Assembly (NCBI GenBank): GCA_963735025.1
Contig: CAVTJG010000009.1
Span: forward strand, 202,225-266,224
Direction of reading: 5' to 3'
From: an uncultured beta proteobacterium
GTDB lineage: Bacteria > Pseudomonadota > Gammaproteobacteria > Burkholderiales > SG8-39
DNA: 64,000 nucleotides
A program made the position numbers and the translations under genes. Shown here piece after piece: positions 24,484-53,820 of the stretch (position 1 is its first letter; every line of letters starts with the position of its first letter). Below the pieces are notes generated by a model. It ran no database searches, was not told the DNA's origin, and saw only the letters and a list, made by a program, of their open reading frames with translations.

Positions 24484-24753
24484 ATGCCAAAAGTCGTTTT
24501 CACCACCCAGCTCCAGCGGCACATCCCGTCTCCGACATGCGAGGTGAACGGGGAGACGGTGCGCGCGGCGCTCGACGCCGTCTTCATCGAGCACGGTGCG
24601 CTGCGCGGCTACGTTCTGGACGACCAGGGTCATCTGCGCAAGCACGTGGCGATCTTCATCGACGGCGCGCGCGTGCAGGACCGGGAGCGATTGTCCGACG
24701 CCGTGCGGCCGGAGAGCGAAATCTACGTGCTGCAGGCGCTGACCGGCGGCTGA
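24484..24753 (+). CDS. MoaD/ThiS-family ubiquitin-like (beta-grasp) small protein ending in Gly-Gly
   Basis: 89 aa: MPKVVFTTQLQRHIPSPTCEVNGETVRAALDAVFIEHGALRGYVLDDQGHLRKHVAIFIDGARV...EIYVLQALTGG-stop. Confidence 0.7.
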   Translation: MPKVVFTTQLQRHIPSPTCEVNGETVRAALDAVFIEHGALRGYVLDDQGHLRKHVAIFIDGARVQDRERLSDAVRPESEIYVLQALTGG

Positions 24754-24772: not shown

Positions 24773-25861
24773 ATGAGCGATCGCGTGCGCGTTGCCACTC
24801 GCAAGGGGCTCTTCACCATCACCCGGCGTGGTGGCCGCTGGGAGATCGGCACACCCGAGTTCCTGGGCGACCCCGTGACCAACGTGCTGGACGACTCCCG
24901 CGACGGCACGCTGTACGCCACGCTCAATCTCGGTCACTTCGGCGTGAAGCTCAAGCGCTCGCGAGACGACGGCAAGTCATGGGAGGAGCTCGCGGCGCCG
25001 ACCTATCCGCCGCAGCCGGAGGGTGCGCAAGGCGCGCCGTGGAAGCTCGTGCTGATCTGGGCGCTCGAGACCGGCGGGAAGAACGAGCCCGGTCTGCTCT
25101 GGGCGGGAACGATTCCCGGGGGACTGTTCCGCTCGCGGGACCACGGCGAATCATGGCAGCTCGTCCGGTCGCTTTGGGACCATCCCGACCGGCTCAAGTG
25201 GATGGGCGGCGGGTATGACCACGCGGGCATCCACTCGATCCTCGTCGATCCGCGCGACGCGGCACGCGTGACGCTTGGCGTCTCGACGGGCGGCGTGTGG
25301 ATCAGCGCGGACGCGGGCGAGACATGGCGTGTTTCGGGGACCGGTATGCGCGCCGCCTACATGCCCCCGGAGCTGCAAGGCGATCCGATTGCGCAGGACA
25401 TCCATCGTATGGTCGCGTGTCCGGTGCGGCCGGAGACGCTATGGGTGCAGCATCACTGCGGAATTTTCCGCTCGGTCGACTCCGCGGCAACGTGGGCCGA
25501 GATCAGCGAGGTCACACCCTCGTCGTTCGGCTTTGCGGTTGCCGTGCATCCGCACGACCCCGATGTCGCGTGGTTTGTCCCGGCCATCAAGGACGAGCGC
25601 CGCGTCCCGGTCGATGCGCGCTTCGTGGTCACGCGCACGAGGGACGGCGGCAAGCACTTCGACGTGCTGAGCGCTGGCCTGCCTGCCCAGCCTTCCTACG
25701 ATCTCGTCTACCGCCACGGCCTCGCCGTCGACGCGACCGGGAGGCGGCTCGCGATGGGCTCGACGACGGGCGGGCTGTGGATTTCCGAAGACTCCGGCGA
25801 CTCCTGGCACTGTGTCTCGCTCAACCTGCCACCGATCGCCGCCGTGCGATTCGCCGACTGA
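24773..25861 (+). CDS. BNR/Asp-box repeat beta-propeller protein (sialidase-fold / Ycf48-like)
   Basis: Repeated Asp-boxes SRDDGKSW, SRDHGESW, SADAGETW, SVDSAATW, TRDGGKHF, SEDSGDSW spaced ~50-60 aa apart. It starts 20 bp after the MoaD-like stop. Confidence 0.8.
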   Translation: MSDRVRVATRKGLFTITRRGGRWEIGTPEFLGDPVTNVLDDSRDGTLYATLNLGHFGVKLKRSRDDGKSWEELAAPTYPPQPEGAQGAPWKLVLIWALETGGKNEPGLLWAGTIPGGLFRSRDHGESWQLVRSLWDHPDRLKWMGGGYDHAGIHSILVDPRDAARVTLGVSTGGVWISADAGETWRVSGTGMRAAYMPPELQGDPIAQDIHRMVACPVRPETLWVQHHCGIFRSVDSAATWAEISEVTPSSFGFAVAVHPHDPDVAWFVPAIKDERRVPVDARFVVTRTRDGGKHFDVLSAGLPAQPSYDLVYRHGLAVDATGRRLAMGSTTGGLWISEDSGDSWHCVSLNLPPIAAVRFAD

Positions 25862-25903
25862 CTCCAGCGGGTCGGCCAGACAGAAGGGCGTTCCTTCCCG
25901 CTG

Positions 25904-26974
25904 TTACTGCCGGACCGAGTACGAGACGAACTGTCCGCAGACCGAATCCACACACGTCGTAGTCATCCTTGTACCGTCCGGGGAAATTGTCCCGGTGCAG
26001 CGTCCTTCCGAGGGCATCGTCGTGCGGTACGCGACCTCCACGCGTGTTCCTTGGATCGAGCCCGCGCCAGCTGCCCGGAAGCTTCCCCGGCATGCAATCC
26101 CCGACGAGGTGTACTGGAACGTGTCCCCGTTCTGGACGAACTCCGAAACGTGTCCCCAGGTAGTGTCGCGCCACGAGCCGCGGATCTGGATTGGCGGCGT
26201 CGCGGATGCGCGGGGTGGCGTATCAGTCTGCGGACGGGGCGCTGGCACGGTCCGGGCGCTCGCCGCCGCTGCCTCCTTCGCGCGCCGGTCTTCCTCTACC
26301 TGGCGCTGAGCCGCCTCTCTGCGCGCGGCTTCCGCAGCGTTCTGCTCGGTCTGACGACGGGCTTCTTGCTCCGCCGCGATCCGCTCGTTCATCGTGTCGT
26401 AGGTCACGTACGCGACGGCAAGCAAGGCCAGTGCGACGCCAGCCACTGCCGCGAGTGTCGCCTTCGAGCGGCGCTGCACACTCGGGCGCCGCGCTTCCGT
26501 GCGCTCTGCCTGCGCACGCACAGGTGACGGCCGCGTTGCTGGTCTGGGCGCCGCAGGACCGGAATCGGATTTCGGTGCGGTGCCGCGATTTGCCAGTGCC
26601 TGGATGGCCCGGGACAGCTCTATGAACTGTGGATCCGACTGGGTCCCGCCCCAACCCGACAGGTCAGCCGCCTGCAATCTCCTGAATTCCAGCGGGATCT
26701 TCACGGGCTCGATCAGCACCGGCACGAGTATGCGGCGCTGCATCGCCTCCGCCGACTCATTCTTCACCCAGCTCGATGCGACGGAAGCCGTTGACCACAG
26801 CACCACGACGCACTTCGCCGCGTCGAGCGCTTCCTCTATGACCTCATCAAATGCCCGGCCTGGCGGGATCGTGCGATCCCACCATATGGACCAGCCTTGA
26901 CCCGCGAGGCTCTCGGCCAGGATCTTCGCACGGTCCCGATCAGCACTCGCGTAGCTGATGAAAACGTCTGCCAT
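25904..26974 (-). CDS. TIR-domain protein with one transmembrane helix and a C-terminal 4-Cys domain
   Basis: The N-terminus reads MADVFISYASADRDRAKILAESLAGQGWSIWWDRTIPPGRAFDEVIEEALDAAKCVVVLWSTASVASSWVKNESAEA (TIR_2-type). RRPSVQRRSK is followed by the helix ATLAAVAGVALALLAVAYVTY. Then come an E/R/A/Q-rich segment, a Pro-rich linker and a ~95-aa Cys-containing domain. Confidence 0.85.
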   Translation of the reverse strand: MADVFISYASADRDRAKILAESLAGQGWSIWWDRTIPPGRAFDEVIEEALDAAKCVVVLWSTASVASSWVKNESAEAMQRRILVPVLIEPVKIPLEFRRLQAADLSGWGGTQSDPQFIELSRAIQALANRGTAPKSDSGPAAPRPATRPSPVRAQAERTEARRPSVQRRSKATLAAVAGVALALLAVAYVTYDTMNERIAAEQEARRQTEQNAAEAARREAAQRQVEEDRRAKEAAAASARTVPAPRPQTDTPPRASATPPIQIRGSWRDTTWGHVSEFVQNGDTFQYTSSGIACRGSFRAAGAGSIQGTRVEVAYRTTMPSEGRCTGTISPDGTRMTTTCVDSVCGQFVSYSVRQ

Positions 26975-26998
26975 AGACGGTACAAGCCAGAAAACCCG

Positions 26999-27754
26999 TC
27001 AAGCGCCCAGATTTAACACGATGCCGGAGAGGTGCGCTGCGCGATCGGAGGCGAGGAATGCCACCGTGTCGCCGACCTGCTCGGGCTCGATGATCTTCCC
27101 GAAGCTGCCGTCCTTCACGACGTCGTCGATGCGCGACTCGTCGCCGTACTTCTGCTTTGCCACATTGCGCATCAGCGTGACGATGCGATCGGTGCGCGTC
27201 GCGGGCGGGTGCACGGCCACGACGCGCACGCCGAACTGGGTCGACTTCTGCCCGAGGCCCTTGGTGAAGGCCGCGAGGCCCGCATTCGCCGTGGCGCCGC
27301 ACACGTACTCGAACGAGGGCTTCTCGCCGGCCATGCCGATCACGTTCACGATCACGCCATGGCCGCGGCCTTTCATGTGGCCGAGCATCGCGCGACTCAT
27401 GTTCACGTAGCCGAAGACCTTGAGGTCCCACGCATGGCGCCACGCATCCTCGTCGATGTCGAGCAGCGAGCCGCCCGGTATGTCGCCCGCGTTGTTCACC
27501 AGGATGTCGGCGGCGCTGCACGCCGCTGCAACCTTCTGCACGGCCGTGCTGTCGCGGAGATCGGCCGGATGAATCCCGATTTCGACCTTGTACTTGTCAC
27601 GCACCTGCTTGCGCGCGGCTTCGAGCCTTCCTGCGTCGCGCGAAACGAGATGCAGGTTGCAGCCCTCCGCGGCGAAGCTCATGGCACAGGCAAGCCCGAT
27701 GCCCTTCGACCCGCCGGTGACGAGAACGGTCTTGCCTTTCAGTCCGAGATCCAT
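26999..27754 (-). CDS. Short-chain dehydrogenase/reductase (SDR)
   Basis: MDLGLKGKTVLVTGGSKGIGLACA... Rossmann Gly motif, 251 aa. Confidence 0.85.
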   Translation of the reverse strand: MDLGLKGKTVLVTGGSKGIGLACAMSFAAEGCNLHLVSRDAGRLEAARKQVRDKYKVEIGIHPADLRDSTAVQKVAAACSAADILVNNAGDIPGGSLLDIDEDAWRHAWDLKVFGYVNMSRAMLGHMKGRGHGVIVNVIGMAGEKPSFEYVCGATANAGLAAFTKGLGQKSTQFGVRVVAVHPPATRTDRIVTLMRNVAKQKYGDESRIDDVVKDGSFGKIIEPEQVGDTVAFLASDRAAHLSGIVLNLGA

Positions 27755-29870: not shown

Positions 29871-31409
29871 ATGACGCAGCAGAGCGAGCAGATCGATCGC
29901 GGCGGCGGCCTGCGCGGCTTCGCGCTGCTGCTCGCGCTATCCGTGCTGCTCCTCGGGCTGGCGAGCTGGCTTGAGGGTAGCTCGGCATTGCGCCATCCGT
30001 TGCGCTGGCTCGCGACGCTCGACCAGTCCGCCGCACTCGCGGTGCTCATCGCCGCGGGCCAGGTCGTCGCGGGGATGCTCGCGATTCTGATCACCGTCGT
30101 CGCGATCGTGGTGCAGCTTGCCGCGACCCGCTACACGCATCGCGTCACCACGCTGTTCGTGCGCGACCGCGTCAACCAGGCAGTGATGACGCTATTCGTG
30201 CTCACGACGGCGCTCTGCATCTGGCTTGCGCTGGTGCTCACCGGGGAGGTGCACGACGCACCGATCGTTCCCCGCGGCGGCTTCCTCCTTGCCATGGGTC
30301 TGATGACCGCATGCGTGGTCGCGCTCGTCCCGTATTTCGGCTACGTGTTCCGCTTCGTCTCGCCGCTTGGCGTGATTCGCCGCATCCGGTCCGCCGCGCT
30401 GAACGAGGCGGAAAGCGCGGTAACGGGTGACCCGCATGCCGCGGAGCTCGCCGTGATCGAGAGCATCGAGGAGCTCGAGGACGTCGCGCGCGGCGCCATG
30501 AACAACTACGACCGCGCCATCGCAATGGCCGCCATCGAGGCGCTCGCGACGCTGCTCACGGACGTCGAGCGACTTCGGAGCACGCTGCCCGCGGAATGGT
30601 TTCGCGTCGACGAAGCCATCGCTCGCGACCCGGATTTCGTCTCGATGTCCAGGACTGCGCTCGACGAGGTTGCCCGCACGGGAAGCTGGTTCGAATCAAA
30701 GATTCTGCGCCAGTACCATGCGCTCTTCATCGATGCCGTCAATAGCGCGCGCGACGTGGCGGGCATGATCGCAATCCACACGCGCCGGCTGGGTGAGCAG
30801 AGCGGGGCCGGGCGACCGGAGCTCGTGGTGCTGTGCCAGCGCGCCTTCAACAGCTACCTGCGCGCGGCGATCAACGGGTCGGACGCGCGCACCGCCTATT
30901 ACGTGCTGCACCAGTACCGCATGTTCGGCGAGACGCTGCTTGCCCGCGGCGAGGAGCCGGCAGTGGTCGAGGTGGCGAGCCGCATCCGGCATTACGGCAG
31001 AGTGGCCAGGGCGAGCGGCCTCCCCTTCCTGCTCGAGGTCGCGGCCTACGACGTCGCCCAGCTCGTCGAGGTCGCCGTCGATAAGCCCGGCGTGCGCGAC
31101 GCGTTATTGAACTTGCTGCTCACGATGGATCAGCTGGGAGCGCAGAATCTGCCCGGGGTGCGGCGCGCCCAGGCGCAGCTCGCGACCTTCTTCCTCGTGC
31201 GCGGCGATACCGATACGGCGCGGCGCATCGCTGGCGACTTGGCGGGCGAGCGGCGCGAGCTGCTCGCGAGCATCCGCTTGGACATCGAGCGCGAGGTCTC
31301 GCCCCACTATTCCGAGATCGAGAATCGTGGCGCCAACTTCTCCTATCTTCCTCCCGAGCGTCGTGCGCAGCTCGACGCCCTCTACGCCATGCTGGGGGCT
31401 GCGGGATGA
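29871..31409 (+). CDS. Membrane protein, four N-terminal TM helices plus ~330-aa soluble domain (DUF2254-like)
   Basis: 512-aa ORF with SD GGGGGGAG. The hydrophobic helices lie in residues ~15-160. The family assignment is from memory only. Confidence 0.6.
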   Translation: MTQQSEQIDRGGGLRGFALLLALSVLLLGLASWLEGSSALRHPLRWLATLDQSAALAVLIAAGQVVAGMLAILITVVAIVVQLAATRYTHRVTTLFVRDRVNQAVMTLFVLTTALCIWLALVLTGEVHDAPIVPRGGFLLAMGLMTACVVALVPYFGYVFRFVSPLGVIRRIRSAALNEAESAVTGDPHAAELAVIESIEELEDVARGAMNNYDRAIAMAAIEALATLLTDVERLRSTLPAEWFRVDEAIARDPDFVSMSRTALDEVARTGSWFESKILRQYHALFIDAVNSARDVAGMIAIHTRRLGEQSGAGRPELVVLCQRAFNSYLRAAINGSDARTAYYVLHQYRMFGETLLARGEEPAVVEVASRIRHYGRVARASGLPFLLEVAAYDVAQLVEVAVDKPGVRDALLNLLLTMDQLGAQNLPGVRRAQAQLATFFLVRGDTDTARRIAGDLAGERRELLASIRLDIEREVSPHYSEIENRGANFSYLPPERRAQLDALYAMLGAAG

Positions 31410-31455
31410 ATCGGATCGCTCGATACGTGCGTCAACTCGTGGAGTAAGGTCGGTC

Positions 31456-31611
31456 ATGCCCGGCAAAGCGCTTACGCCCGTACAGATCGTCAATAAGCTG
31501 CAGCGCATCGCGCGCCTCACCGCGAGCGGCAAAATGCCGGCGCAGGCGTGCAAGCAGGCGGGCATCGACGAGCGGACCTACAAGCGCTGGCGCAAGGAGT
31601 ACGGCACGCTG
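31456..31611 (+). mobile_element. IS3-family OrfA-like helix-turn-helix segment forming the N-terminus of the GAF kinase ORF (IS remnant / domesticated HTH)
   Basis: MPGKALTPVQIVNKLQRIARLTASGKMPAQACKQAGIDERTYKRWRKEYGTL resembles the IS3 OrfA pattern (sPEQIixKLRexE...G...eaCRxxGisexTyYRWRKEYGGl). No OrfB/DDE transposase is present anywhere in the window. Confidence 0.45.
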
Positions 31612-31698
31612 GCGACGCGGCTCGCCAAGGCGAACGGCGGAAGCGCCCCCGGGGATCGCGTAACCGGCGACGCCGCTCTCGCCGCCGCCCGGGCGCAG

Positions 31699-34600
31699 CA
31701 GGCTGCGACCGCCGAGATCCTGCGCCTCATCAGCGACTCACCGACCGACCCGCAACCGATCTTCGATGCGATCGTGAAAAGCGCGGTGCGATTGTGCGGT
31801 GCCGTGTACAGCGCAGCGATGAGGGTGGAAAGCGGCCTGGTGCACCTCGTCGCCCAGCACGACTGGCCGGAAGAAGGCTGGGCGCTCGCGCGGCAGATAT
31901 TCCCGATGCCGCTCGATCGCGAACATCTCACTGCAGTTGCCATCCGGGAAAGCCGCGTCATCCACGTCGACCACCTGCAGGACAATCCCGATCTCCCCGT
32001 ATCGTCGCGCGAACTCGCGCGTGTCACCGGCTACCAGGCGCTTCTGGTCGTACCGATGATCCGGGGCTCGGAAGCGATCGGCGCGATCGCCGTGGCGCGG
32101 AAGACCGCGTTCACGGACGATCAGGTCGCGCTCCTCAAGTCCTTCGCCGACCAGGCGGTGATCGCCATCGAGAACACGCGCCTGTTCAACGAGACCCAGG
32201 AAGCGCTCGAGCGGCAGACCGCGACCGCCGAGATCCTGGAGGTCATCAGCCGGTCGCAGAGCGACCTGCAGCCGGTCTTCGACACGATCGCGGCGAGCTC
32301 GAAGCGGCTCTGTAGCGGCGATCAGGGCGTGGTCGTTCACCTTCGATGGCGAGCTGCTCCACATTGGCAGCTGTCGCGGCGCGTGAACGACTCCCGAAGA
32401 GCGAGAATAGCGCGCGACGATCATGGCCCGCGGCCGCGCCGACCGCGGCACCGTGGCAGGGCGAGCGGTCCTCACGCGCGCGACCGTCACAAGTCCCCGA
32501 CGTGCTCGAGGACCCGGAGTGCCAGCACGCGGGTGTTGCACAGGTCGGCGGCTGGCGCGGCATTGCCTCGGTCGCCGATGCTGCGCGAGGGAAACCTCAT
32601 CGGCGCGATCGTCGTTGCGCCGCCGAAGCCCGCGCCTTTCACCGATCACCAGGTCGCGCTGCTCAAGACCTTCGCCGACCAGGCGGTAATCGCGATCGAG
32701 AACGTGCGCCTGTTCAACGAGACCAAGGAGGCGCTCGAGCGGCAGACCGCGACCGCGGAGATGCTCAGCGTGATCGGAAGTTCGCCGACGGACACGCAGC
32801 CGGTGTTCGAGGCGATCGTGAACAGCGGGCTTGGGCTGTTCCCAGGCGCGATGATCACCGTCGCGCGTCCCGAAGGCGACCTTGTACGTGCAGCGGCGAT
32901 AGCGCACGACGACTCCGCGATGGTCGCAGGGTGGAGCGGAAAGGTTCACAACCCCGCTCTCCCGCGATCGTCTGCACGGCGCGGCGATTCTCGACGCCAT
33001 GCTTATCGACATTCCGGACGCGCGGGCCGAGGCAGACGGGCCTCTTGCGCCGGGCATTCGCAATTTTCTGTTGAGCGGCAATCGCGCGATCACGGTCATG
33101 CCGATGCTGCGTGGCAAGGACGCCATCGGCGTGATCAGCGTGACACGCGCTGTGCCCGGACTCCTGAGCGACAAGCAACTCTCGATCTTGCACACCTTCG
33201 CCGACCAGGCCGTGATCGCGATCGAGAACGTGCGCCTGTTCAACGAGACAAGAGAAGCGCTCGAGCAACAGACCGCAACCGCGGAAATACTCAAGGTCAT
33301 CAGCGAGTCGCCCACCGACGTGCAGCCGGTGTTCGACGCAATCGTGGCAAGTTGCACCCGCCTCCTTGCCTGCAACCATGCAACGCTGCGGCTGGTGAAA
33401 GGAGATCATGCCGAGTTCGCGGCGAGCAATTCGACGATCGGAGGGAAAACGGTCGTCGAATCTCCCATGTCGATCCACGACGACAGCATGCCCGTTTCGC
33501 ATGCGGTAGCGCGCCGGGAGGTGGTGCAGATTCCGGATACATCGGCGGAAGGCGTCTCCGTGCAGATGAAACAACGTGGCGAGCAGCGCGGCTTTCGCTC
33601 GCTCATGGTCGCGCCCCTGCTGCGGGACAACGATGTGATCGGCACGATCAATGTGCATCGCGCGACGCCCGGGCGCTTCACGGAAAAGGAAGTCGCGCTT
33701 CTCGAGACCTTCGCGAGCCAGGCGGTGATCGCGATCGCGAACGTGCGCCTCTTCAACGAGACCCGCGAGGCGCTCGAGCAGCAGAAGGCGTCGGGCGAAG
33801 TGCTGAGCGTGATCAGCAACTCGATCGCGGATGCGCAGCCGGTGTTCGAGAAGATCGTCGAGAGCTGCGAGCGACTGTTCCCCGGTGGCAAGATTGGGCT
33901 CAACCTTATCGGTCCGGATGGACTGGTGCATGCAGGCGCCTACGGAAACTTCCCCGGGGCGGCCAAGTTGAGGAAGGAGCACTTCCCTCACCCGGCCGCC
34001 GGGTCGGCTACCGGTGCTGCGATCGACGCGGGTGGGGTCATTCACTTTCCCGACGCGCTCGGCGATCCCGACGTCCCGCCATTCGCCCGGAGTGGAGCCG
34101 AGGCGGTGGGCTTTCGGGCGTTCATCGCGGCGCCGCTGCTGTCGGAGGGCCGTGGCCTCGGCGCGATCTTCGTCGGGCGTGGTGCGGTCGGTTCCTTCAC
34201 CGAAAAGGAGATCGCACTCCTCAGGACGTTCGCCGATCAGGCAGTGATCGCCATCCAGAACGCGCGCCTCTTCAATGAAACAAAGGAGGCACTCGAGCGG
34301 CAGACGGCGACGAGCGGCATTCTCGAAGTCATGAGCGGGTCCCCGACGGACGTTCAGCCCGTCTTCGACGCGATCGTAAAGAGCGGGGCGCGGTTGTTCA
34401 GTGGTGCCGGGGTGGCTATTGCGCTTCCCGATGCCGGCCAGGTGCGGCTCGCGTCGATCGCGGACGAAGACCCGGAACGATGCGCGAGATGGGCAGCGAG
34501 CTACCCGTTTCCTTTGACACGGGACTACATGCATGCGACGGCAATCCTGGACCGAAGAGTGATCGATGTACCGGACGCGCTCGACCCGCCCGCGCAGTGG

Positions 34601-36910
34601 GCGGCCGGAATCGAAAACTTCGTCCGCACCGGCTATCGCGCCATCACGATCATTCCGATGATGCGCGGCAATACCGACTTCGGCACGGTCAGCGTGGTGC
34701 GCATGGCGCCCGGACCGTTGACGGACAAGCAATACGCGATCCTGAAGACGTTCGCCGACCAGGCGGTGATCGCGATCGAGAACGTGCGCCTCTTCAACGA
34801 GACCAAGGAGGCGCTCGAGCAGCAACGCGCCTCGGGCGAGGTACTGAGCGCGATCAGCGAGTCGATCGCCGACACCGAGCCGGTGTTCGAGAAGATCCTC
34901 GAGAGCTGCGAGCGCCTGTTTGCGGTACGTCAGGTCGGAATCAACCGGGTCGGCGAGGACGGCAAGGTGCACCTCGCGGCCTTCCACGGGCCTGGACGCG
35001 AGATGCTCGATCGGATCTTCCCGCTCTCCCTCGAAGGGGATTCGGGCTCGAGCATCTGCCTGCGGGAACGGCGCGTGGTCCACTATCCGGATGCGCAAGA
35101 AGGCGCCGACGTGCCGTCGACGACGCGCCAGAGCTGCATTGCGACCGGCTTCCGCTCCATCCTCTTCGCGCCGATGCTCTGGGAGGGGCGAGGGATCGGC
35201 GTGCTGTTCATGGGCCGCGACCGGGTCGCTCCCTTCACCGAGAAGGAGATCGCTCAGTTCAAGACCTTCGCCGACCAGGCGGTCATCGCGATGCAGAACG
35301 CGCGCATGTTCAACGAGACCAGGGAGGCGCTCGAGCAGCAGACCGCGCTCAGCGAGATACTCGGCGTAATCTCGTCCTCGCCAACCGATGTCATACCCAT
35401 GTTGCACGCGGTCGCCGAGCGGGCGGGAAAATTGTGCGACGCCGACGTCTCGAACGTCCTGCTCGTGGAGGGCGAGGCGCAGCGTCTTGCCTCGAACTAC
35501 GTCAAGGACGGCGTTGCGAATCCGTTCGCCGGTCAGGGCCCAATGGTCCTTTCCCTCAGTCGCGGCTCGGTGTCGGGCCGCGCAATCATCGACCGCACTG
35601 CGGTGAACGTCCTCGACATGGGCGAGGCACCTGAGGATGAGTACCCGGTCGGCCGCGAGGTCTCGCAGCGGTTCGGCGTTCGAACCGTATTCGGAACCCC
35701 GCTGATGCGCGAAGGGCGTGCAATCGGCGCAATCGTCCTGGTCCGCATGCGAAAACAGGCATATTCGGACAAGCAAATCGCTCTGGTGCGGACCTTCGCC
35801 GACCAGGCGGCAATCGGCATCGCGAACGTGCGCCTGTTCAACGAGACCAAGGAGGCGCTCGACCAGCAGACCGCCTCGGCCGAGGTGCTGCGGGTAATCA
35901 GCAGCTCGCTCGCGGATGCCAAGCCGGTGTTCGAGATGATCCTGCAAAGCTGGAGCGGCCTGCTGGCGTGCCGGCACGACGGGGATCACGATAGCGGGCG
36001 AGGAGGGAAACGTCTTGAACCTTGGCGCATACCTCGGACCCGACGAAGAAGATGATGGAACGCATGTATCCCATGCCGCTCGAGGGTTCTGCCTCAGGAT
36101 TGGCGATTGTCGAACGCCGCGTGCTGCACTATCCGGATATCGACACGTGGGGCGAACGTGCCCGACCCTGTCCGCCGGGCCGCGAAAGTTACTGGCATTA
36201 CATCGTTCATCTTGTACGCCCTTGCTAGGCAAGGAGCGGGCGATCGGTACCATCTTCATGGGGCGCACTTAGTCGGCGCGTTCTCCGACAAGGAGATCGC
36301 GCTGCTCAGGACCTTCGCCGACCAGGCGGTCATCGCGATCGAGAACGCGCGCCTCTTCAAGGAGCTGGAGACGCGCACCGCCGAGCTCAGCCGCTCGGTC
36401 GAGCAGTTGACCGCGCTCAGTGAGGTCGGTCGCGCGGTCAGCGCGAGCCTTGACCTGGATACGGTTCTCACCACCATCGTGACCCAGGCAGTGCAGCTCT
36501 CCGGCCTCGACGGGGGCAACATCTACGAGTACGACGCGGAGCGGGAGGAGTTCGCGCTGCGGACCGCGCTTGGGGTGAATGCCCAGCTGGAGCAGCAGAT
36601 TCGGGAGACTCGGTTGCGCAAGGGCGAGGGCGCGATCGGCAGGGTCGCCGTGACGCTTGCGCCCGTGCAGTTCCCGGACATCCTCGCAGAGAGCAACTAC
36701 GACAGCCGCCTGCGCGAGAGCCTCGTCCATGCGGGCGCGCGCGCGGTGCTGGCTATTCCGCTCCTGCGCGAGGGCCAGCTCGTCGGGGGCCTCGTCGTGC
36801 TTCGCAACCAGCCGGGTGAGTTCGCGAAGAATGTCGTCGAGCTGCTGACCACATTCGCCGCCCAGTCGGCGCTGGCCATGCAGAACGCGCGCCTGTTCGC
36901 GGAGCTCGAG
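31699..36910 (+). repeat. Tandem array of ten GAF modules with a ~520-bp period (coding repeat)
   Basis: The linker core TTCGC(C/G)GA(C/G)CAGGCGG starts at 32143, 32671, 33197, 33710, 34229, 34751, 35267, 35795 and 36314 (spacings 513-528 bp). It is followed each time by a ...RLFNET.EALE.Q.A... helix. Confidence 0.85.
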
Positions 36911-36940
36911 CTGGCAAGCAAGCACAAGACCGAGTTCCTC

Positions 36941-36982
<42 letters not shown>

Positions 36983-37425
36983 ATCGGCTACAGCGAGATG
37001 CTGCAGGAGGACGCCGAGGACGCTCGGCACGGAGCCTTCGTGCCCGACCTGAAGAAGATCAACGCCGCGGGCCGGCACCTGCTGGAGCTGATCAACGACG
37101 TGCTGGACCTGTCCAAGATCGAGGCCGGCAAGATGGAGCTGCACCTCGAGGACTTCGGCGTCGCGGGCATGCTCGACGACATCGCCGCCGTCGATCCAGC
37201 CGCTGGTGGAGAAGAACGCGCAACCGCCTGGCGATACGCTGGGACGCCGCGCTCGGGCAGCCATGCACGCCGACCTCACCAAGGTCACGCCAGGTGCTGT
37301 TCAACCTGCTCAGCAACGCCTGCAAGTTCACCGAGAACGGCACGATCTCGCTCGGCGTGACGCGCGAAAGCGGGACGGACGGCGACTGGTGATGTTCGCG
37401 GTGCGCGACACCGGCATCGGCATGA

Positions 37426-37686
<261 letters not shown>

Positions 37687-38429
37687 TGATCGACGACGAC
37701 GCCGACGTCAGGGATCTGATGCAGCGCTTCTCGCCAAGGAAGGCTATCGCGTGGTGGTCACCGCAGCCGGCGGCGAGGAAGGCCTGCGGCTGGCCGAGAG
37801 CTGCGGCCGGACGCGATCACGCTGGACGTGATGATGCCGGGCATGGACGGCTGGGCGGTGCTGTCGGCGCTCAAGGCCGACGCGCGAACTGCGCGACATC
37901 CCGGTCGTCATGCTGACGATCATGGACAACAAGAACCTCGGCTACGCGCTCGGCGCCGCCGACTACCTGATCAAGCCCATCGACCGCGAGCGGCTCATCG
38001 GATGCCCTTGCGCAGTTCCGGCCGCGACCTGCCCGATCCTGGTCGTGGACGACGACGCGGCGCTGCGCGCGAGCTCTTGCGCCGCATCCTCGAGAAGGAC
38101 GGCTACACCGTGGTCGAAGCCGAGAACGGGCGCGAGGCGCTGGCGCGTGCTCGACGCAGGTCTCGCCGGGACTGATCCTGCTCGACCTGATGATGCCGGA
38201 GATGGACGGCTTCGAGCTCGTGGCTGAGCTGCGCGCGGCACGAGGCATGGCGGGCCATCCCGGTCATGGTCATCACGGCCAAGGAGCTGACGGCCGAGGA
38301 CCGGCGCAGGCTGAACGGATACGTCGAGCGGATCCTGCAGAAAGGGACTGCCATCGCGCGACGCGCTGCTGCGCGAGGTCGGCGATTCGTGGCAGCGCTC
38401 CATGGCCCATCCAAGGGAGCACGCAAGTC

Positions 38430-38806
38430 ATGACCAAGATCCTGCTCGTCGAGGACAACGAGATGAACCGCGACATGCTGTCGCGGCGCCTCGCCGCCGA
38501 GGGCTACGAGGTCGTCATGGCCATGGACGGCGAGCAGGGCGTGGCGATGGCCACGTCCGAACCCCCGCGCTCATCCTGATGGACATGAGCCTGCCCGGTA
38601 TCGACGGCTGGGAGGCCACGCGCCGGATCAAGGCGGAACCCGCCACCCGCGCCATTCCGGTCATCGCGCTGACCGCGCATGCGATGGAGGGCGACCGCGA
38701 GAAGGCGCTCGCGGCCGGCGTCGACGACTTCGACACCAAGCCCGTCGAGCTTGAGCGGCTGCTCGGCAAGATCGAAGCGCTGCTCGCGCGCAACGCCGCC
38801 TCCTGA
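38430..38806 (+). pseudogene. Single-domain response regulator (REC), one frameshift near 38565
   Basis: MTKILLVEDNEMNRDMLSRRLAAEGYEVVMAMDGEQGVAMATSE in one frame, then [74 protein letters not shown] in another. The ATG overlaps the kinase stop (ATGA). Confidence 0.65.
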
Positions 38807-38808
38807 AG

Positions 38809-40374
38809 ATGGATCGCGAGACGCTCGCCCAGCTGCGTCACGAGCTGCGCACGCCGCTGAATCACATCATCGGCTACACCGAGATGCTGATCGAGGACGG
38901 CGGGCCGCCGGAGCTCGCGCCTGCACTCCGCGCAGTGCTCGACGACGCGCAGGCACTGCTCGGTCTGATCAACGAGCTGCTCGGCCCGGCTGCTGCGGGC
39001 TCCCTCGAGTCCGCACAGCATCTCGCCGCGCAGCTCGGCGCACCCCTCGAGCGCATCCTCGATGCAAGCAAGGCCATCACGGCGAAGCTACTCGCAGCCG
39101 GCGCCGCAGAGGCGCACAAGGACGCGGATCGCATCCACGGCGCCGCCGATCACCTCGCCATGCTCGTCAAAGGCGGGCTCGCCCAGCGCGTGACCGAGCG
39201 CGCCGCCGCGAAGGCGACGCCGGAATTGCCGGCCGCCACCGTCCATGCAGCGAAATCGGGCGCCGGCGTCATCCTCGTGGTGGACGACAACGCGGAGAAC
39301 CGCGAGATGCTGGCGCGCCGGCTGGGGCGCGAGGGCTTCGAGGTCCTGCGGGCAGCTGGCGGCGCCGAAGCGCTCGCGACCCTCGAGAGCGCGGCCGTCG
39401 ATCTCGTGCTGCTCGACGTGATGATGCCGGACATCAACGGCTACGACGTTCTGAAGCGGCTCAAAGACGAATCGAGCGGCTGCGGCACATCCCCGTGCTC
39501 ATGATCTCGTCGCTCGACGAGGAAGAAAGCGTCGCGCGCTGCATCGAGCTCGGTGCCGAAGATTACCTGCCGAAGCCCTTCAGCCCGGTCATCCTGCGCG
39601 CCCGGGTGAGCGCCTGCCTCGAGCGGAAGCGTCTGCGCGATCAGGAGGTGCGCCACGCGGCCGAGCTCGAGGAGTGGAACCGGACGCTCGAGCAGCCGCG
39701 TGCAGGAAGGCGTGGCGCACGTCGAGAAGCTGGGCCGCCTCAAGCGCTTCTTCTCGCCGCAGCTCGCCGAGCTGATCGTGGCCGGCGGCGCCGACGACCC
39801 GCTGCGCACGCACCGCCGCCAGGTGACGGTCGTGTTCCTGGACCTGCGCGGCTTCACCGCGTTCGCCGAGACGGCCGAGCCCGAGGAGTCATGGGCGTGC
39901 TGCGCGAGTACCACGCCGCGATGGGCGAGCTGATCCTCGCGCACGAGGGCACGCTCGAGCGATTCACCGGCGACGGCATGATGATCTTCTTCAACGACCC
40001 GGTGGAAGTGCCGGACCATGCCGAGCGCGCGGTGCGCATGGCGCTGGCGATGCGCGACTGCGTGGCGAAGCTCGCCGCCGGGCTGGAAGAAGCAGGGCTG
40101 GGATCTCGCGCTCGGCGTGGGGATCGCGCAGGGCTACGCGACGATCGGCGCGATCGGCTTCGAGGGCCGGTGGGACTACGGCGCGATCGGCACGGTGACG
40201 AATCTCGCCGCGCGCCTGTGCGGCGAAGCAAAAGGCGGCCAGGTTCTCGTGTCGTCCCGCCTGGCGGGCGCGGTCGAGGACGTGGTCGAGACCGAAGAGG
40301 TCGGCTCCCTCACCCTCAAGGGACTCCATAAGCCTGTTCCCGCACTCAACGTGGTCGCGCTCAAATCCGGATGA
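38809..40374 (+). pseudogene. HisKA-only phosphotransfer domain - REC - class III adenylate/guanylate cyclase, four frameshifts as sequenced
   Basis: H-box [19 protein letters not shown] with no HATPase. REC shows [14 protein letters not shown]...[12 protein letters not shown]...YLPKPF. The cyclase motifs are [27 protein letters not shown] and [13 protein letters not shown]. Frame switches lie near 39468, 39698, 39890 and 40087. Confidence 0.75.
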
Positions 40375-51660: not shown

Positions 51661-52359
51661 ATGAAGATCCTGGTCGTGGACGATCACCCGATGATGGCGG
51701 ACGCCATTCGTCAGGCGCTGCTCTCGCTCGAGCGCGAGGCCGAGGTGGTATGCGTGGGTGACCTCGCCAGCGCCCTCTCCGCGACCGTCGACGACGCCGG
51801 ATTCGAGCTCGCGCTGCTGGATCTCGGGTTGCCGGATTGCGCAGGGCCGGACGGGCTGGCCCGACTGCGGGAAGAGCGGCCTTATCTTCCAGTGGTGGTC
51901 GTCTCCGGTGCGAGCGATCCCGACACCATCGTCGCCTCGCTCGACCTTGGCGCGATGGGTTTCATTCCGAAGACCTCGTCGCGCGAGGTGCTCCTCAACG
52001 CTGTCCGGCTCGTTGCCTCCGGCGGCATCTACGTCCCGATGGAGGCGCTCAAGGCGCGCGCCGCGAAGGAAGCGATCACGGCAGAGAATCCAAAGTCCGC
52101 CGCTGCCTCGGATGCAACGTCCGACTCCTCGGGTGTTGCAAAGACCGCCCCTGCCGACCTCGGTCTGACGCCGCGACAGGCGGATGTGCTGTCGCTTCTG
52201 CTCAAAGGGCTGCCGAACAAGCTCATCGCCCGCAAGCTGGACATAGCGGAAAACACGGTCAAGGTGCACGTGAGCGCCGTCCTGCAGGCACTCAACGTCA
52301 GCACCCGCACTCAAGCGCTGATCGCAGCGACGCGACTCGGGCTACACCTGGACATGTAG
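51661..52359 (+). CDS. NarL/FixJ (LuxR-type HTH) response regulator
   Basis: MKILVVDDHPMM...LALLDLGLPD...GFIPK, then a long Ala/Ser linker, then LTPRQADVLSLLLKGLPNKLIARKLDIAENTVKVHVSAVLQAL. Confidence 0.85.
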   Translation: MKILVVDDHPMMADAIRQALLSLEREAEVVCVGDLASALSATVDDAGFELALLDLGLPDCAGPDGLARLREERPYLPVVVVSGASDPDTIVASLDLGAMGFIPKTSSREVLLNAVRLVASGGIYVPMEALKARAAKEAITAENPKSAAASDATSDSSGVAKTAPADLGLTPRQADVLSLLLKGLPNKLIARKLDIAENTVKVHVSAVLQALNVSTRTQALIAATRLGLHLDM

Positions 52360-52461: not shown

Positions 52462-53820
52462 TCAATGCTCCTTCGGCATGAGCAGGTTGAGGATCATTGC
52501 GAGCAAGATGCCCATGACAATGCCGTCGCTGACGAGTATGCGGAGCGCCGGCTCGATCGCATTGAAGGTGCCGGGGGGCGCGGCCTGGATGCCGAGCCCC
52601 ACGCCGAGCGAAGCGGCGAGGATCACCGCGTCACGACGCGTGGCCAGGTTGCGTCCGATGATGTCCACGCCGACCGAGGCGACCATGCCGAACATGAACA
52701 ACAGCACCCCACCCAGCACCGCATTAGGCATGAGCGCGATGATTGCGCCGACCTTGGGCAACATTGCCATCAGTATCAGGAACGCCCCGCCGAACGCCAC
52801 CACGAACCGGCTGCCGACTCCGGTGAGCGAGATGACGCCGATGTTCTGCGAGTACGAGGTGAGCGCCATGCCGCCGAAGATGGCCGAGATCGTCGATCCG
52901 ATGCCGTCGTTCGCCACCGCACCCCGGATGCGCCAGTCTTCCGGCGGCACGCCGCAGATGCGCGTCACCGCGAGCGTGTGGCCGGTGGTCTCGACCGCCG
53001 TCGCGAAGAAGCACACGATGACCGTGATCACGCCGATCAAGCCTGGCCACTCGAGACCTCCGTACGGAAACGGTGACGGCACGGCGACCCAGCCCGCGTT
53101 GTAGACGGTATTGAGATTGATCAGGCCGAACGCGGCCGCGACGAGGTACCCGATGACCATCGTCAGGAACAGCGAGAGGGCCTTGACGAACCCCTTGGCG
53201 AACCGGTTGATGACGATGATCAGGACGATCATCAGCGCAGCGAGCCCCAGCGTCAGGGGCTTCCCGAATGCCGGGGAATTCGCACCCGAGGCGACGCTGA
53301 TCCCGATCTTCATGAGGCCGGTGCCGATGAGCAGAATGGTCGTGCCGGTCACGATCGGCGGGAAGAATCGCTGCAGCTTGCCGATCAGCGGGCTCCACGC
53401 GAACTGCACGAGGCCGCCGATCATCAGCGCGGTCATGGCCGCCGCGAGGCTCACTTCCTTGGAGATTGCGACGATCGGGCCGATAAAGATGTAGAAGACC
53501 CCCATGACGATCGGCAGCCGCGGCCCGATGAAACTGACACCGAGCGAGGAAACCATCGTCGCGATGCCGCAGCCGATCATCGTTCCCGACACCATCGCGA
53601 TGCGCGTCCCATCGGGAAGGTTCAGGAGGCGTGCCACGATGAGCGGGCCGCCCACCATCGCGGTGAACATCACCAGGACGTGCTGGATGCCGAACAGCGT
53701 GGTCTTGACCGGCCCGGGATAGTCGTTCAGCTGATAGTCGAGCTTGGCGAACCCGCGGTCGCCGTGATCCGCATGCCCGACCGCTTCCGGTGCTCCCGCT
53801 ACTGGCGCGTGTGCGCTCAT
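52462..53820 (-). CDS. NCS2 family nucleobase (xanthine/uracil-type) permease
   Basis: From MSAHAPVAG...TLFGIQHVLVMFTAMVGGPLIV...ETTGHTLAV...SYSQNIGVISLTGV. SD GGAGGGGA before ATG 53820. The track ORF carries a spurious 104-aa extension. Confidence 0.85.
   Translation of the reverse strand: MSAHAPVAGAPEAVGHADHGDRGFAKLDYQLNDYPGPVKTTLFGIQHVLVMFTAMVGGPLIVARLLNLPDGTRIAMVSGTMIGCGIATMVSSLGVSFIGPRLPIVMGVFYIFIGPIVAISKEVSLAAAMTALMIGGLVQFAWSPLIGKLQRFFPPIVTGTTILLIGTGLMKIGISVASGANSPAFGKPLTLGLAALMIVLIIVINRFAKGFVKALSLFLTMVIGYLVAAAFGLINLNTVYNAGWVAVPSPFPYGGLEWPGLIGVITVIVCFFATAVETTGHTLAVTRICGVPPEDWRIRGAVANDGIGSTISAIFGGMALTSYSQNIGVISLTGVGSRFVVAFGGAFLILMAMLPKVGAIIALMPNAVLGGVLLFMFGMVASVGVDIIGRNLATRRDAVILAASLGVGLGIQAAPPGTFNAIEPALRILVSDGIVMGILLAMILNLLMPKEH

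Follow-up and report, generated by a model that had tools for sequence, protein, structure and literature searches.

A gene encoding a single-pass membrane protein that joins a TIR domain to a predicted extracytoplasmic β-barrel was identified in the 64,000-nucleotide stretch of DNA analyzed here (termed the window). The gene is real, stand-alone and accessory. It occupies positions 25904 to 26974 of the minus strand as a complete open reading frame (ORF) of 356 codons plus a stop codon, and the product consists, in order, of the TIR domain, a linker, a transmembrane (TM) helix, a stalk, a second linker and the barrel. With a probability of a little under one-half (~0.48), this protein may be a one-component transmembrane sensor for conflict or defense in which binding of a ligand by the barrel would lead to clustering and, hence, to NADase activity of the TIR domain. 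Comparison with homologues indicated that the protein belongs to a new family, in which an enzymatic-type TIR and one TM helix are constant and the predicted extracytoplasmic domains are interchangeable.

The reading frame starts with an ATG codon, and the N terminus of the product (MADVF...) matched the start of 24 homologues in a full-length alignment. The GC3 value was 0.75, as compared to 0.81 to 0.87 for the neighboring genes. An SDR gene (26999 to 27754) lies upstream across an intergenic gap of 24 bp, while the downstream neighbor, a BNR/sortilin-like gene (24773 to 25861), is convergent. A promoter scan detected no sigma-70-like promoter in the 24-bp gap, a terminator scan gave matches no better than chance, and a search of the whole window with Rfam gave 0 matches. 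An earlier note on this DNA had described the ORF, a TIR domain, a lone hydrophobic helix and a C-terminal β domain with four Cys residues, all of which were borne out by Pfam searches, hydropathy analysis and AF2 modeling.

The N-terminal domain (residues 1 to 130; 26585 to 26974, minus strand) was assigned to the AbTIR/TIR_2 type by Pfam, PDB sequence and Foldseek searches. Pfam TIR_2 (PF13676) matched residues 4 to 111 with 90.3 bits against a cut-off of 28 bits (E value of 1.7e-25), and the PDB sequence matches included a TIR-STING fusion, BtTir, AbTIR and RPP1. Foldseek matched many TIR structures, among them the Hydra TRR-2 TIR (TMt of 0.85) and AbTIR (7uxu; TMt of 0.75), in line with the flavodoxin-like TIR fold; this part of the full-length AF2 model had a pLDDT of ~87. 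The earlier placement of Glu73 at the catalytic position also held. This residue, encoded by a GAG codon at 26756 to 26758 (minus strand) and forming a W69-x3-E73 motif, aligned with the Glu of AbTIR (WTNYELDG) and of RPP1 (WCLDEL), and W69 aligned with the Trp of both; we take the AbTIR counterparts to be W204 and E208. E73 and W69 were invariant in alignments of 25 and 86 sequences, and the WxxxE motif, with its catalytic-position Glu, and the DxFISxAS motif were unchanged across more than 100 sequences. A conserved catalytic Glu on helix alphaC with a Trp at −4 is a feature of enzymatic TIRs; thus, the domain retains features of NAD-cleaving TIRs, and NADase activity is predicted.

The TIR domain is followed by a Pro/Ala/Arg-rich, probably cytoplasmic linker (residues 131 to 171; 26462 to 26584, minus strand) that ends in RRPSVQRRSK. 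AF2 predicted this region to be disordered, with a pLDDT below 50 for residues 133 to 175 of the full-length model, and its identity to homologues was 10 to 37% versus 65 to 81% for the TIR domain. The single TM helix (residues 172 to 192; 26399 to 26461, minus strand) has the characteristics of a signal anchor with an N-in orientation. The earlier note had placed one hydrophobic helix here, in agreement with a Kyte-Doolittle maximum of 2.3 over 19 residues (172 to 190), the sole peak at TM level in the protein. Direct reading of the sequence found the helix to be rich in Ala and Gly. AF2 extended it into one unbroken helix spanning residues 172 to 241, of which the portion beyond the membrane forms a putative periplasmic stalk rich in Glu, Arg, Ala and Gln (residues 193 to 241; 26252 to 26398, minus strand). 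The stalk is 43% charged and 31% Ala, contains three strongly hydrophobic residues and, on analysis of its composition and register, has no heptad register. It is, therefore, probably an ER/K-like single helix rather than a convincing coiled coil, and the earlier proposal of a coiled coil at residues ~195 to 240 was abandoned. Both the length and the sequence of the stalk vary among homologues, several of which have Pro-rich linkers instead. A Pro/Thr-rich flexible linker (residues 242 to 257; 26204 to 26251, minus strand; pLDDT below 50 for residues 243 to 256 in the AF2 model) connects the stalk to the barrel.

The sequence data support an N-in, type II inner-membrane topology, with the TIR domain predicted to be cytoplasmic and the barrel periplasmic. 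The same orientation had been proposed previously on the basis of the positive-inside rule. The N-terminal flank of the TM helix carries six Lys/Arg residues and the C-terminal flank has three Lys/Arg and four Asp/Glu residues. Across the family, the net charge of the flanks agreed with the rule (+2.4 on the N-terminal side versus +0.3 on the C-terminal side), but the count of Lys/Arg alone did not (3.2 versus 3.0). Other evidence for the topology came from the Cys residues and from the arrangement of related proteins. The protein contains Cys at positions 55, 295, 326, 341 and 346, the last four being in the barrel; 108 of 109 clade members had an even number of Cys residues in the ectodomain. 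As the barrel is always C terminal, is in most cases preceded by a TM helix or by an N terminus resembling a signal peptide and has its Cys residues in pairs, it is likely to reside outside the cytoplasm. In other barrel architectures, these preceding segments were judged by hydropathy and by eye.

The C-terminal domain (residues 258 to 356; 25907 to 26203, minus strand), noted previously as ~95 residues of β-looking sequence with C295, C326, C341 and C346, was modeled by AF2 as an all-β, eight-stranded up-and-down barrel with high confidence (pLDDT of 94.7, pTM of 0.82). A GxW motif on strand 1 is invariant and an Arg on the last strand (Arg355) is near-invariant; these are presumably the hallmarks of calycins. 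Foldseek searches of the PDB, the check that had been suggested for this domain, gave designed barrels as the best matches, followed by bradavidin2 (TMq of 0.73), avidins (0.65) and lipocalins and nitrobindin (0.55 to 0.60); the E values against natural ligand-binding barrels were 1e-4 to 1e-2, indicative of fold-level similarity only. On these models, the barrel appears to belong to the calycin-like class of ligand-binding folds represented by avidin and lipocalins. Sequence-based searches with the barrel gave no match to Pfam or NCBIfam models and a probability below 1% by hhalign against avidin and streptavidin (sequences entered by hand). A Foldseek search of BFVD gave nothing below an E value of 6.6e-3, and a search of a word-indexed database with the C-terminal domain alone returned one, uninformative, candidate. 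The best match in a PDB sequence profile search, CFA/III pilin, had an E value of 0.04 and was judged to be due to chance.

An exhaustive profile search showed that the barrel family comprises 498 representative clusters and is unannotated. The barrel is fused to TIR, caspase, CHAT, trypsin-like protease and PG_binding_1 domains, and a second, unrelated TIR clade also bears the TM-stalk-barrel arrangement (e.g., P0169). Among 147 barrels, the Cys patterns were all four present (n = 48), the inner two only (n = 57), none (n = 33) and odd numbers (n = 9). The Cys residues covaried, with the same two pairs being lost together, and disulfides are, therefore, predicted between C326 and C341 and between C295 and C346. 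We infer that the barrel may sense an extracytoplasmic cue; as it also occurs on apparently wholly periplasmic proteins, it could alternatively be a targeting module.

A targeting role for the barrel would be in keeping with a different explanation, namely, that the protein is a membrane-tethered TIR effector that is triggered from inside the cell. In this case, a phage or stress cue would be recognized in the cytoplasm by the TIR domain or the cytoplasmic linker, and the stalk and barrel would only hold or position the protein at sites such as the peptidoglycan, the poles or the outer membrane, without transmitting a signal. The fusions of the barrel to periplasmic proteases and to PG_binding_1, for which targeting would be natural, are consistent with this explanation, as is the occurrence of clade members of 268 to 279 amino acids that have the stalk only, lack a folded ectodomain and occupy the same locus as the full-length versions. 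The characterized single-gene TIR defense proteins are also described as sensing phage proteins directly (PMC11350192 and an abstract on SpbK). We nevertheless regard triggering from inside as unlikely, due to the conservation patterns of the clade. A total of 897 homologues of the TIR protein were found, forming a metagenome-rich family, and 85 of 86 sampled proteins of the TIR clade had the TIR-TM arrangement, the TIR domain being highly conserved; a comparable TM helix was present at residues 160 to 230 in 85 of 86 other clade members. Upon this constant TIR-TM chassis, the barrel is exchanged for a His/Cys domain, a MORN domain or a stalk only, and such exchange of unrelated folded domains is what would be expected of a specificity module. 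Both end domains are under purifying selection, with crude Nei-Gojobori estimates of dN/dS being ~0.15 to 0.17 for the TIR domain and the barrel alike, so that the ectodomain is as strongly constrained as the TIR domain. The cytoplasmic linker, in contrast, is disordered and poorly conserved and, hence, there is no obvious internal sensor. There was no signal of diversifying (positive) selection on the barrel in these dN/dS estimates, although such a signal would be expected of a sensor engaged in an arms race.

If the barrel is the sensor, signaling from outside to inside could proceed as follows. The floppy linker of ~40 residues, the TM helix, the stalk of ~7 nm and the Pro/Thr linker would hold the ectodomain in the periplasm, where the barrel would bind a cue from the envelope or from outside, such as a component of a phage or of a competitor, a piece of the cell wall or a hydrophobic small molecule. 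Ligand binding would then cluster receptors in the plane of the membrane, clustering would draw the TIR domains into head-to-tail assemblies that form the active site, and the assembled TIR domains would use up NAD+ or produce a signal derived from ADPR, resulting in growth arrest or abortive infection. To our knowledge, head-to-tail assembly is needed for formation of the active site in all enzymatic TIRs studied. Both linkers are predicted by AF2 to be disordered, which makes it unlikely that a conformational change is relayed rigidly across the membrane.

The same topology would also allow for regulated proteolysis, as with type II anti-sigma factors such as RseA, whereby an envelope signal would bring about cleavage first of the ectodomain and then of the TM helix, leaving the TIR domain free in the cytoplasm to self-associate and become active. 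Membrane anti-sigma factors share the N-in, single-TM, C-out arrangement, Ala and Gly are abundant in the TM helix, zinc-ribbon-TM-barrel proteins are found in the barrel family, and the anti-sigma factor RsfG was a structural match of the barrel (TMq of 0.60 by Foldseek). The likeness to RsfG is, however, weak and restricted to the fold, no anti-sigma family showed sequence similarity to the protein, and no protease gene or conserved partner was present at the loci. Nothing in these analyses separates proteolysis from clustering, and we consider proteolysis to be very unlikely.

The earlier note had grouped the TIR gene with the alpha/beta hydrolase and SDR genes as three same-strand genes. 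The shared strand was confirmed, but a functional unit was not. An origin as the third gene of a metabolic operon would fit the 24-bp gap and its lack of a promoter-like site, and the hydrolase-SDR-TIR order recurred at four other loci (L003, L004, L009 and L010). In the syntenic locus L018, by contrast, the hydrolase and SDR genes are followed directly by the BNR gene, and 18 bp are present where the window has 1,136 bp (25863 to 26998), consisting of the ORF with 24 bp upstream and 41 bp downstream; blastn alignments broke exactly at the borders of this segment. No target-site duplication or direct repeats were seen by eye at the borders of this indel. The absence of exactly the TIR gene from a syntenic relative indicates that the apparent operon is fortuitous and that the TIR gene is dispensable. 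The orthologues occupy five unrelated neighborhoods, with those of P0009, P0012, P0016 and P0024 having wholly different neighbors, and the SDR family has a far wider distribution than the TIR gene; the named matches of the neighboring SDR were Burkholderiales MAGs with 72 to 80% identity. The operon explanation is extremely improbable and was rejected, being largely refuted by the L018 indel.

No gene for SIR2, SLOG, Macro, STING, Argonaute, a cyclase or a CD-NTase was present within ~12 kb of the TIR gene, and PADLOC detected nothing on the ORFs within this distance, in line with the lack of a SIR2, SLOG, Macro, STING or Argonaute partner recorded previously. No partner gene was conserved across the orthologue loci. 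In the remainder of the window, PADLOC matches to mad3 and mad8 (62432 to 63238), CARF3 (51661 to 52359), SduA (38809 to 39504) and Csx19 (on a GAF protein) were rejected as partners, each being a weak or generic similarity located 12 to 35 kb away. A PycC match in the window (E value of 7.8e-6) lies on an ORF outside the set tested within ~12 kb. Among the ~10 orthologue loci inspected, one (L013) had genes for a patatin, a TPR-S protein and a second TIR beside the orthologue, another (L015) had HsdR and NERD genes a few kilobases from the TIR gene, and L006/L007 had a Phd/PIN toxin-antitoxin pair ~6 kb away; the remainder contained metabolic and transport genes and were not defense islands.

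These neighborhoods bear on whether the protein has any role in conflict. The TIR domain could be a nonenzymatic interaction scaffold in an envelope or signaling process of a housekeeping nature, as might be suggested by the number of ordinary chromosomal, metabolic neighborhoods, the lack of defense-island enrichment among the few loci seen and the stable chromosomal position of type-2 relatives across related genomes. Against this, the catalytic Glu, WxxxE and DxFISxAS are invariant in more than 100 sequences, the gene is missing from a close syntenic relative, and the TIR gene evolves faster than its flanks, with the protein being 68.5% identical where the flanking genes are 93% identical. 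A housekeeping role is, on this evidence, distinctly improbable. A scan of GTDB genomes for close relatives gave two distant, TIR-only matches, one in a Phenylobacterium MAG and one in an unclassified alphaproteobacterial MAG. Matches in plasmid collections were at the level of the TIR domain only (≤40% identity), with no close relative, and there was no match to the TIR protein in phage collections.

Comparison with known systems places the sensor reading in context. AbTIR, BtTir, PdTIR and BtpA resemble this TIR in fold (as for AbTIR, above), in the DxFISxAS motif and in W-x3-E with its catalytic-position Glu, but the sequence identity of AbTIR-type proteins is only ~20 to 30%, and these soluble proteins, which carry either an N-terminal coiled coil or no further domain, lack a TM helix and an extracytoplasmic domain. 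Thoeris ThsB, Escherichia coli TIR-I to IX, SpbK, TIR-SAVED, TIR-STING and SPARTA likewise have a TIR with a catalytic Glu encoded by an accessory gene. The PADLOC and NCBIfam matches of the protein to such systems scored far below the family cut-offs and reflected no more than a general likeness among TIRs. No ThsA effector gene (SIR2/SLOG or Macro/TM) is adjacent, as would be the case in Thoeris, and the ThsB, ThcB4 and retron-TIR models scored far below their cut-offs (30.8 versus 220 bits for ThcB4; 31.9 versus 600). The TIR effectors of CBASS, Pycsar and type III CRISPR systems (TIR-SAVED, TIR-STING and PycTIR) have a nucleotide-sensing domain and a cyclase or CD-NTase gene, neither of which was found here (the regions beyond the TIR are the TM helix, stalk and barrel only, and the genes searched lie within ~12 kb), and the SAVED_TIR model covered the TIR part alone. 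Short pAgo/SPARTA systems have an APAZ domain and an adjacent Argonaute; the Aga_TIR model matched residues 4 to 109 only and there is no neighboring Argonaute. Single-gene TIR proteins can protect E. coli from phages in a manner requiring the TIR active-site residues and, as proposed here, combine sensor and effector in one protein (PMC11350192); the presumed sensor of the present protein is outside the cytoplasm. In the papers found, the characterized bacterial TIR immune proteins sense inside the cell or through a nucleotide signal made there.

The barrel described here resembles avidin, bradavidin, lipocalins, FABP and nitrobindin in being an eight-stranded meander barrel of ~100 amino acids that is predicted to be extracytoplasmic and to contain disulfides; calycin-type barrels had no sequence-level relationship to it (hhalign below 1%, no Pfam match). 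Comparative genomics has predicted conflict proteins in which a death or immunity effector (TIR, caspase, CHAT or trypsin) is combined with a C-terminal sensor that varies and in some cases is extracellular (PMC8195603, PMC10907252). Caspase-TM-CHASE2 is one example, and the barrel is found on exactly the same set of effectors. These reports do not contain the barrel or the TIR-TM clade, the NTPase, adaptor and DGR components of those systems are absent here, and the hosts here are Burkholderiales-like soil bacteria, whereas those papers stress multicellular taxa. A literature search found no paper describing the TIR-TM-barrel architecture as characterized, and the earlier note had likewise known of no characterized example. 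The unannotated, widespread extracytoplasmic barrel defined here, with its ~500 representative clusters, could serve as a handle for further envelope-linked conflict proteins since it is common to TIR, caspase, CHAT and trypsin effectors. Furthermore, a small protein from a single gene lends itself to testing.

Envelope sensing is a current question in phage defense, with Zorya and Kiwa as recent examples, and we know of no TIR that has been tied to it. By analogy, the protein and its family might be a prokaryotic functional counterpart of Toll-like receptors; the periplasmic barrel, or one of the domains that take its place, would detect a cue (possibly a phage during adsorption, a toxin from a competitor or a fragment of the cell wall), and clustering of the receptor would switch on a TIR NADase. 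We consider this doubtful. Were this analogy correct, the protein would represent the first bacterial TIR pathway triggered outside the cytoplasm and the ectodomain swaps would constitute a repertoire of specificities, while outside-in signaling, if true, would mean that the receptor logic of Toll-like receptors also exists in bacteria, here coupled to an enzymatic output, the ancestral one. Beyond the TIR domain, nothing points to common descent with Toll-like/IL-1 receptors. These receptors are single-pass proteins with an exterior ligand-binding domain and a cytoplasmic TIR; for the protein described here, one TM helix and an exterior disulfide-type domain are supported computationally, and ligand binding is predicted. 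Ligand-driven approximation of TIR domains is the natural model for both. The two differ in that the present protein has the reverse domain order with an N-terminal TIR, a type II orientation and a barrel of 99 amino acids instead of LRR or Ig domains. Furthermore, the TIRs of Toll-like receptors have classically been regarded as scaffolds, while the TIR of this protein retains the enzymatic Glu.

The TIR gene (25904..26974, minus strand) encodes from an ATG start a protein of 356 aa, termed here the TIR-TM protein. The N-terminus, MADVFISYAS, coincided with those of two dozen full-length homologues in an alignment, fixing the start codon. A Pfam search placed a TIR_2 domain, as proposed in an earlier note, at residues 4-111 (E 1.7e-25; 90 bits against a threshold of 28), and a 19-residue hydropathy scan gave one peak of TM strength (2.3 at 172-190), in agreement with the single membrane helix claimed there. 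The helix was flanked by six Lys/Arg in 15 residues on the N side and by three Lys/Arg and four acidic residues on the C side. Cysteines were present at 295, 326, 341 and 346, as described previously, together with one further Cys at 55. A full-length AlphaFold model, built on a 25-sequence alignment, predicted with confidence a TIR fold at residues 1-130 (pLDDT about 87), followed by a disordered stretch (133-175), one unbroken helix comprising the TM segment and stalk (172-241), a disordered Pro/Thr linker (243-256) and an all-beta domain (266-355). The coiled coil proposed to follow the membrane helix was not upheld, as residues 193-241 had no heptad register and only three strongly hydrophobic residues. 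This stalk, which is 43% charged and 31% alanine with many i/i+4 opposite-charge pairs, resembles a single helix or spacer of the ER/K type and is swapped for Pro-rich linkers in several homologues.

In a phmmer comparison with PDB sequences, residues 3-93 aligned with a TIR-STING fusion, BtTir, AbTIR, RPP1 and PdTIR. Glu73, previously suggested to occupy the catalytic position, did align with a Glu in both AbTIR ('WTNYELDG') and RPP1 ('WCLDEL'). This Glu is the catalytic residue in TIR NADases (AbTIR E208 and the plant TIR Glu). Trp69 aligned with the conserved Trp. E73, W69 and the BB-loop region WWDR-IPPG were invariant in 25 full-length relatives and 86 further members of the clade. Structural neighbours of the domain included AbTIR bound to 3AD and the SARM1 and SPARTA TIRs. 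The TIR domain looks, from these alignments, to be of the enzymatic kind; that the protein is a non-enzymatic housekeeping scaffold appears quite improbable.

The C-terminal beta domain was recovered when the last 99 residues (258-356) were modelled alone on an 18-sequence alignment, AlphaFold predicting eight consecutive strands of up-and-down topology (pLDDT 94.7, pTM 0.82). Foldseek searches of the PDB matched this barrel to barrels designed de novo (6czj, TMq 0.73), bradavidin2 (0.73), avidins (about 0.65) and the anti-sigma factor RsfG (0.60), as well as to nitrobindin, lipocalins and FABPs, with E-values of only 1e-4 to 1e-2. Its modelled fold places the domain in the calycin-like class, whose small barrels bind ligands. 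Pfam and NCBIfam searches gave no match, a PDB profile search gave no credible match, and hhalign against streptavidin and avidin gave a probability of <1%. In alignments, strand 1 had a G-x-W that never varied and the final strand an Arg that was nearly invariant. Together these form the structural signature of calycins, which we regard here as a lead rather than as a test.

A profile search of 1.84 billion representative proteins detected the barrel in 498 clusters at E <=1e-3 (209 at <=1e-10), always at the C-terminus; the barrel is a domain of about 500 representative clusters with no Pfam or NCBIfam model. Architectures were scored on the best 146 of the 498 clusters. Most were short proteins with one N-terminal TM helix, two TM helices, or a TM helix together with a zinc ribbon. 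Others had a signal-peptide-like N-terminus, called by eye and hydropathy rather than by a predictor, followed by a Peptidase_C14 caspase (6), CHAT (4), a trypsin-like protease (5) or PG_binding_1 (2). Sixteen were TIR proteins, and in many of these a TM helix separated the TIR from the barrel. Examples of barrel proteins outside the TIR-TM clade are P0178, P0214, P0171, P0182, P0165 and P0169.

Three independent lines of evidence, namely the constant C-terminal position, these architectures and the Cys patterns, place the barrel outside and bear out the earlier assignment of the TIR to the cytoplasm. Among 147 barrel sequences, the pattern was CCCC in 48, xCCx in 57, none in 33 and odd in only 9. 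As the cysteines change as two pairs, these patterns imply probable disulfides C326-C341 and C295-C346. The number of ectodomain cysteines was even in 108 of 109 members of the TIR-TM clade, the cytoplasmic part of which mostly had one Cys. The positive-inside rule, on which the earlier note had relied, offers weaker support than was judged: family-wide, it held for net charge (+2.4 on the N side versus +0.3 on the C side) but not for K/R counts (3.2 versus 3.0). The TIR-TM protein is thus predicted to be a type II membrane protein, with TIR inside and barrel outside.

Among the candidates scored, the full-length protein had 897 database relatives at E <=1e-3, roughly 30 of them with the same TIR-TM-stalk-barrel layout. 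A TM helix lay 160-230 residues in for 85 of 86 other close relatives sampled. TIR domains were very alike across the clade while ectodomains differed, being the barrel, MORN repeats, a charged stalk alone or, more commonly than the barrel, a domain ending ...VPGDSxTPxPHxHTxRL...DGSLRFxQNCPxPGxCY. This last domain, with its His-rich motif and two Cys, carries no annotation. The TIR-TM chassis is constant and its ectodomains are interchangeable. TM-stalk-barrel was also joined to another TIR clade, unrelated to this one (e.g., P0169, MRAIFISYRRDD...), indicating that this combination arose more than once. Among orthologues, TIR and barrel were conserved and the linker, TM and stalk drifted (identities to the relative P0005 of 81% for TIR, 34% for linker, 52% for TM, 68% for stalk and 81% for barrel). 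Crude dN/dS values against the orthologue on contig L003 were 0.165 for TIR and 0.153 for barrel (0.083 for the adjacent SDR), indicating that both end domains are functional; no diversifying selection on either was obvious in this comparison. These values speak against an explanation in which the TIR is triggered from inside and the barrel only anchors or targets the protein, which we consider unlikely. The dS against L003 was higher for the TIR gene (0.73-0.76) than for the SDR (0.45; 26999-27754), a hint that the TIR allele may have a history other than that of its flanks, through replacement or recombination, or a weaker codon bias.

The exact protein had no match in a collection of 15 billion proteins; named relatives of the SDR were Burkholderiales MAGs (72-80% identity), and the window most probably derives from an uncultured soil bacterium of Burkholderiales-like affinity. 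In the close relatives L009/L010 (93% identity) and L003/L004 (68.5%), as in the window, hydrolase, SDR and TIR follow one another in this order and the BNR gene is convergent. The earlier note had described the TIR gene as the last of three same-strand genes; the short gap to the SDR was confirmed, at 24 rather than 25 bp, but a functional unit was not. On L018, a 431-kb contig with an 87% identical SDR, the synteny (SBP_bac_3, hydrolase, SDR, then BNR, ThiS-like, S15 peptidase) was intact without the TIR gene, and in blastn positions 25863-26998 (1136 bp: the ORF with 24 bp on its upstream and 41 bp on its downstream side) corresponded to 18 bp, with no direct repeats seen at the junction. 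More distant orthologues occupied four further, unrelated neighbourhoods. The apparent operon is, therefore, an accident of insertion or deletion, and membership of a metabolic operon with the hydrolase and SDR is essentially refuted. GC3 was 0.75 for the TIR gene versus 0.81-0.87 for its neighbours, and on L003 the TIR-TM protein was 68.5% identical versus 93% for the flanking hydrolase and SDR. The gene is a dispensable unit that stands alone and evolves fast. The earlier statement that no partner lies nearby stood, PADLOC giving no match in ORFs tested within about 12 kb and only generic, weak matches beyond; no close relative was found in sequenced plasmids and phages. Of the contexts seen, only one of these four, on L013 (1794-8982), resembled a defence island. 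The barrel-type orthologue P0016 comes there after part of an integrase (rve_3), a TPR-S protein, a patatin and an ORF of 133 aa, and some 1 kb downstream of it lies another TIR_2 protein (332 aa), to which it is distantly related. Relatives with the His/Cys ectodomain lay at a stable position, flanked by an SBP gene and tctC (SBP_bac_1, TIR, TctC, PrpD, TctA; L014 6001-7203, L015 6001-7134, L016 6001-6807), the protein at this one locus being full length (377-400 aa) or a 268-aa stalk-only form.

Several other features of the window were observed. A ThiS/MoaD-like small ORF (24484-24753, plus strand) directly precedes the BNR/sortilin-like gene (F510_1955 type, glycosyl hydrolase-like; 24773-25861, plus strand), a pair kept in L003, L009 and L018. 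A multi-GAF hybrid histidine kinase (31327-39504, plus strand) is split into several ORFs (31327.., 32999-36055, 36107-37360, 38809-39504), while its syntenic gene in L009 encodes a single 2486-aa product; frameshifts, assembly errors or pseudogenisation could account for the split. An ORF within a same-strand run (62432-63238, plus strand), 35 kb from the TIR gene, matched PADLOC 'mad3' (5e-30) and 'mad8' (2e-8), a score suspected to reflect generic ATPase similarity. The 127-aa ORF 53111-53494 (plus strand) had GC1 of 0.41 and GC3 of 0.92, unlike every other ORF in the window.

The modelled linkers on each side of the membrane are disordered and appear flexible, making a rigid trans-membrane conformational relay implausible. 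All enzymatic TIRs studied so far need self-association to form their active sites, as in SARM1, in filaments of AbTIR, TIR-SAVED and TIR-STING, and in tetramers of plant TNLs. Clustering would, therefore, be the simplest mechanism: a ligand would cluster the ectodomains, concentrating the TIRs and switching on NAD+ cleavage or signal production, with growth arrest or abortive infection as the outcome. We assign this reading a probability of roughly 0.5. Release of the TIR by regulated proteolysis, in the manner of anti-sigma factors, seems improbable. Architecture, topology and orphan status hold; the sensor role is a proposal.

Membership of Thoeris, CBASS/Pycsar, SPARTA or retron-TIR systems was rejected because partner genes and fused domains were absent and family-model scores were far under cut-off. 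In its working, the protein may resemble single-protein TIR defence genes, which protect E. coli and need the TIR active site (PMC11350192). The literature found contained no description of the TIR-TM clade or the barrel and no characterised example, and the earlier note likewise knew of none. Comparative genomics had already predicted effector-TM-extracellular-sensor proteins, e.g., caspase-CHASE2, and TIR, caspase and trypsin effectors on variable sensors (PMC8195603; PMC10907252); the same effector set shares the barrel seen here. An E. coli TIR survey noted that TLR-like membrane features seem to be missing from bacterial TIR systems. The boldest reading, that this bacterial protein is a genuine TIR receptor of TLR-like kind signalling from outside to inside, is tentative and rather doubtful. 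The TIR-TM protein is a putative TIR effector of bacteria whose extracytoplasmic domain is new and of sensor type, and its receptor-like layout resembles that of a TLR turned round.
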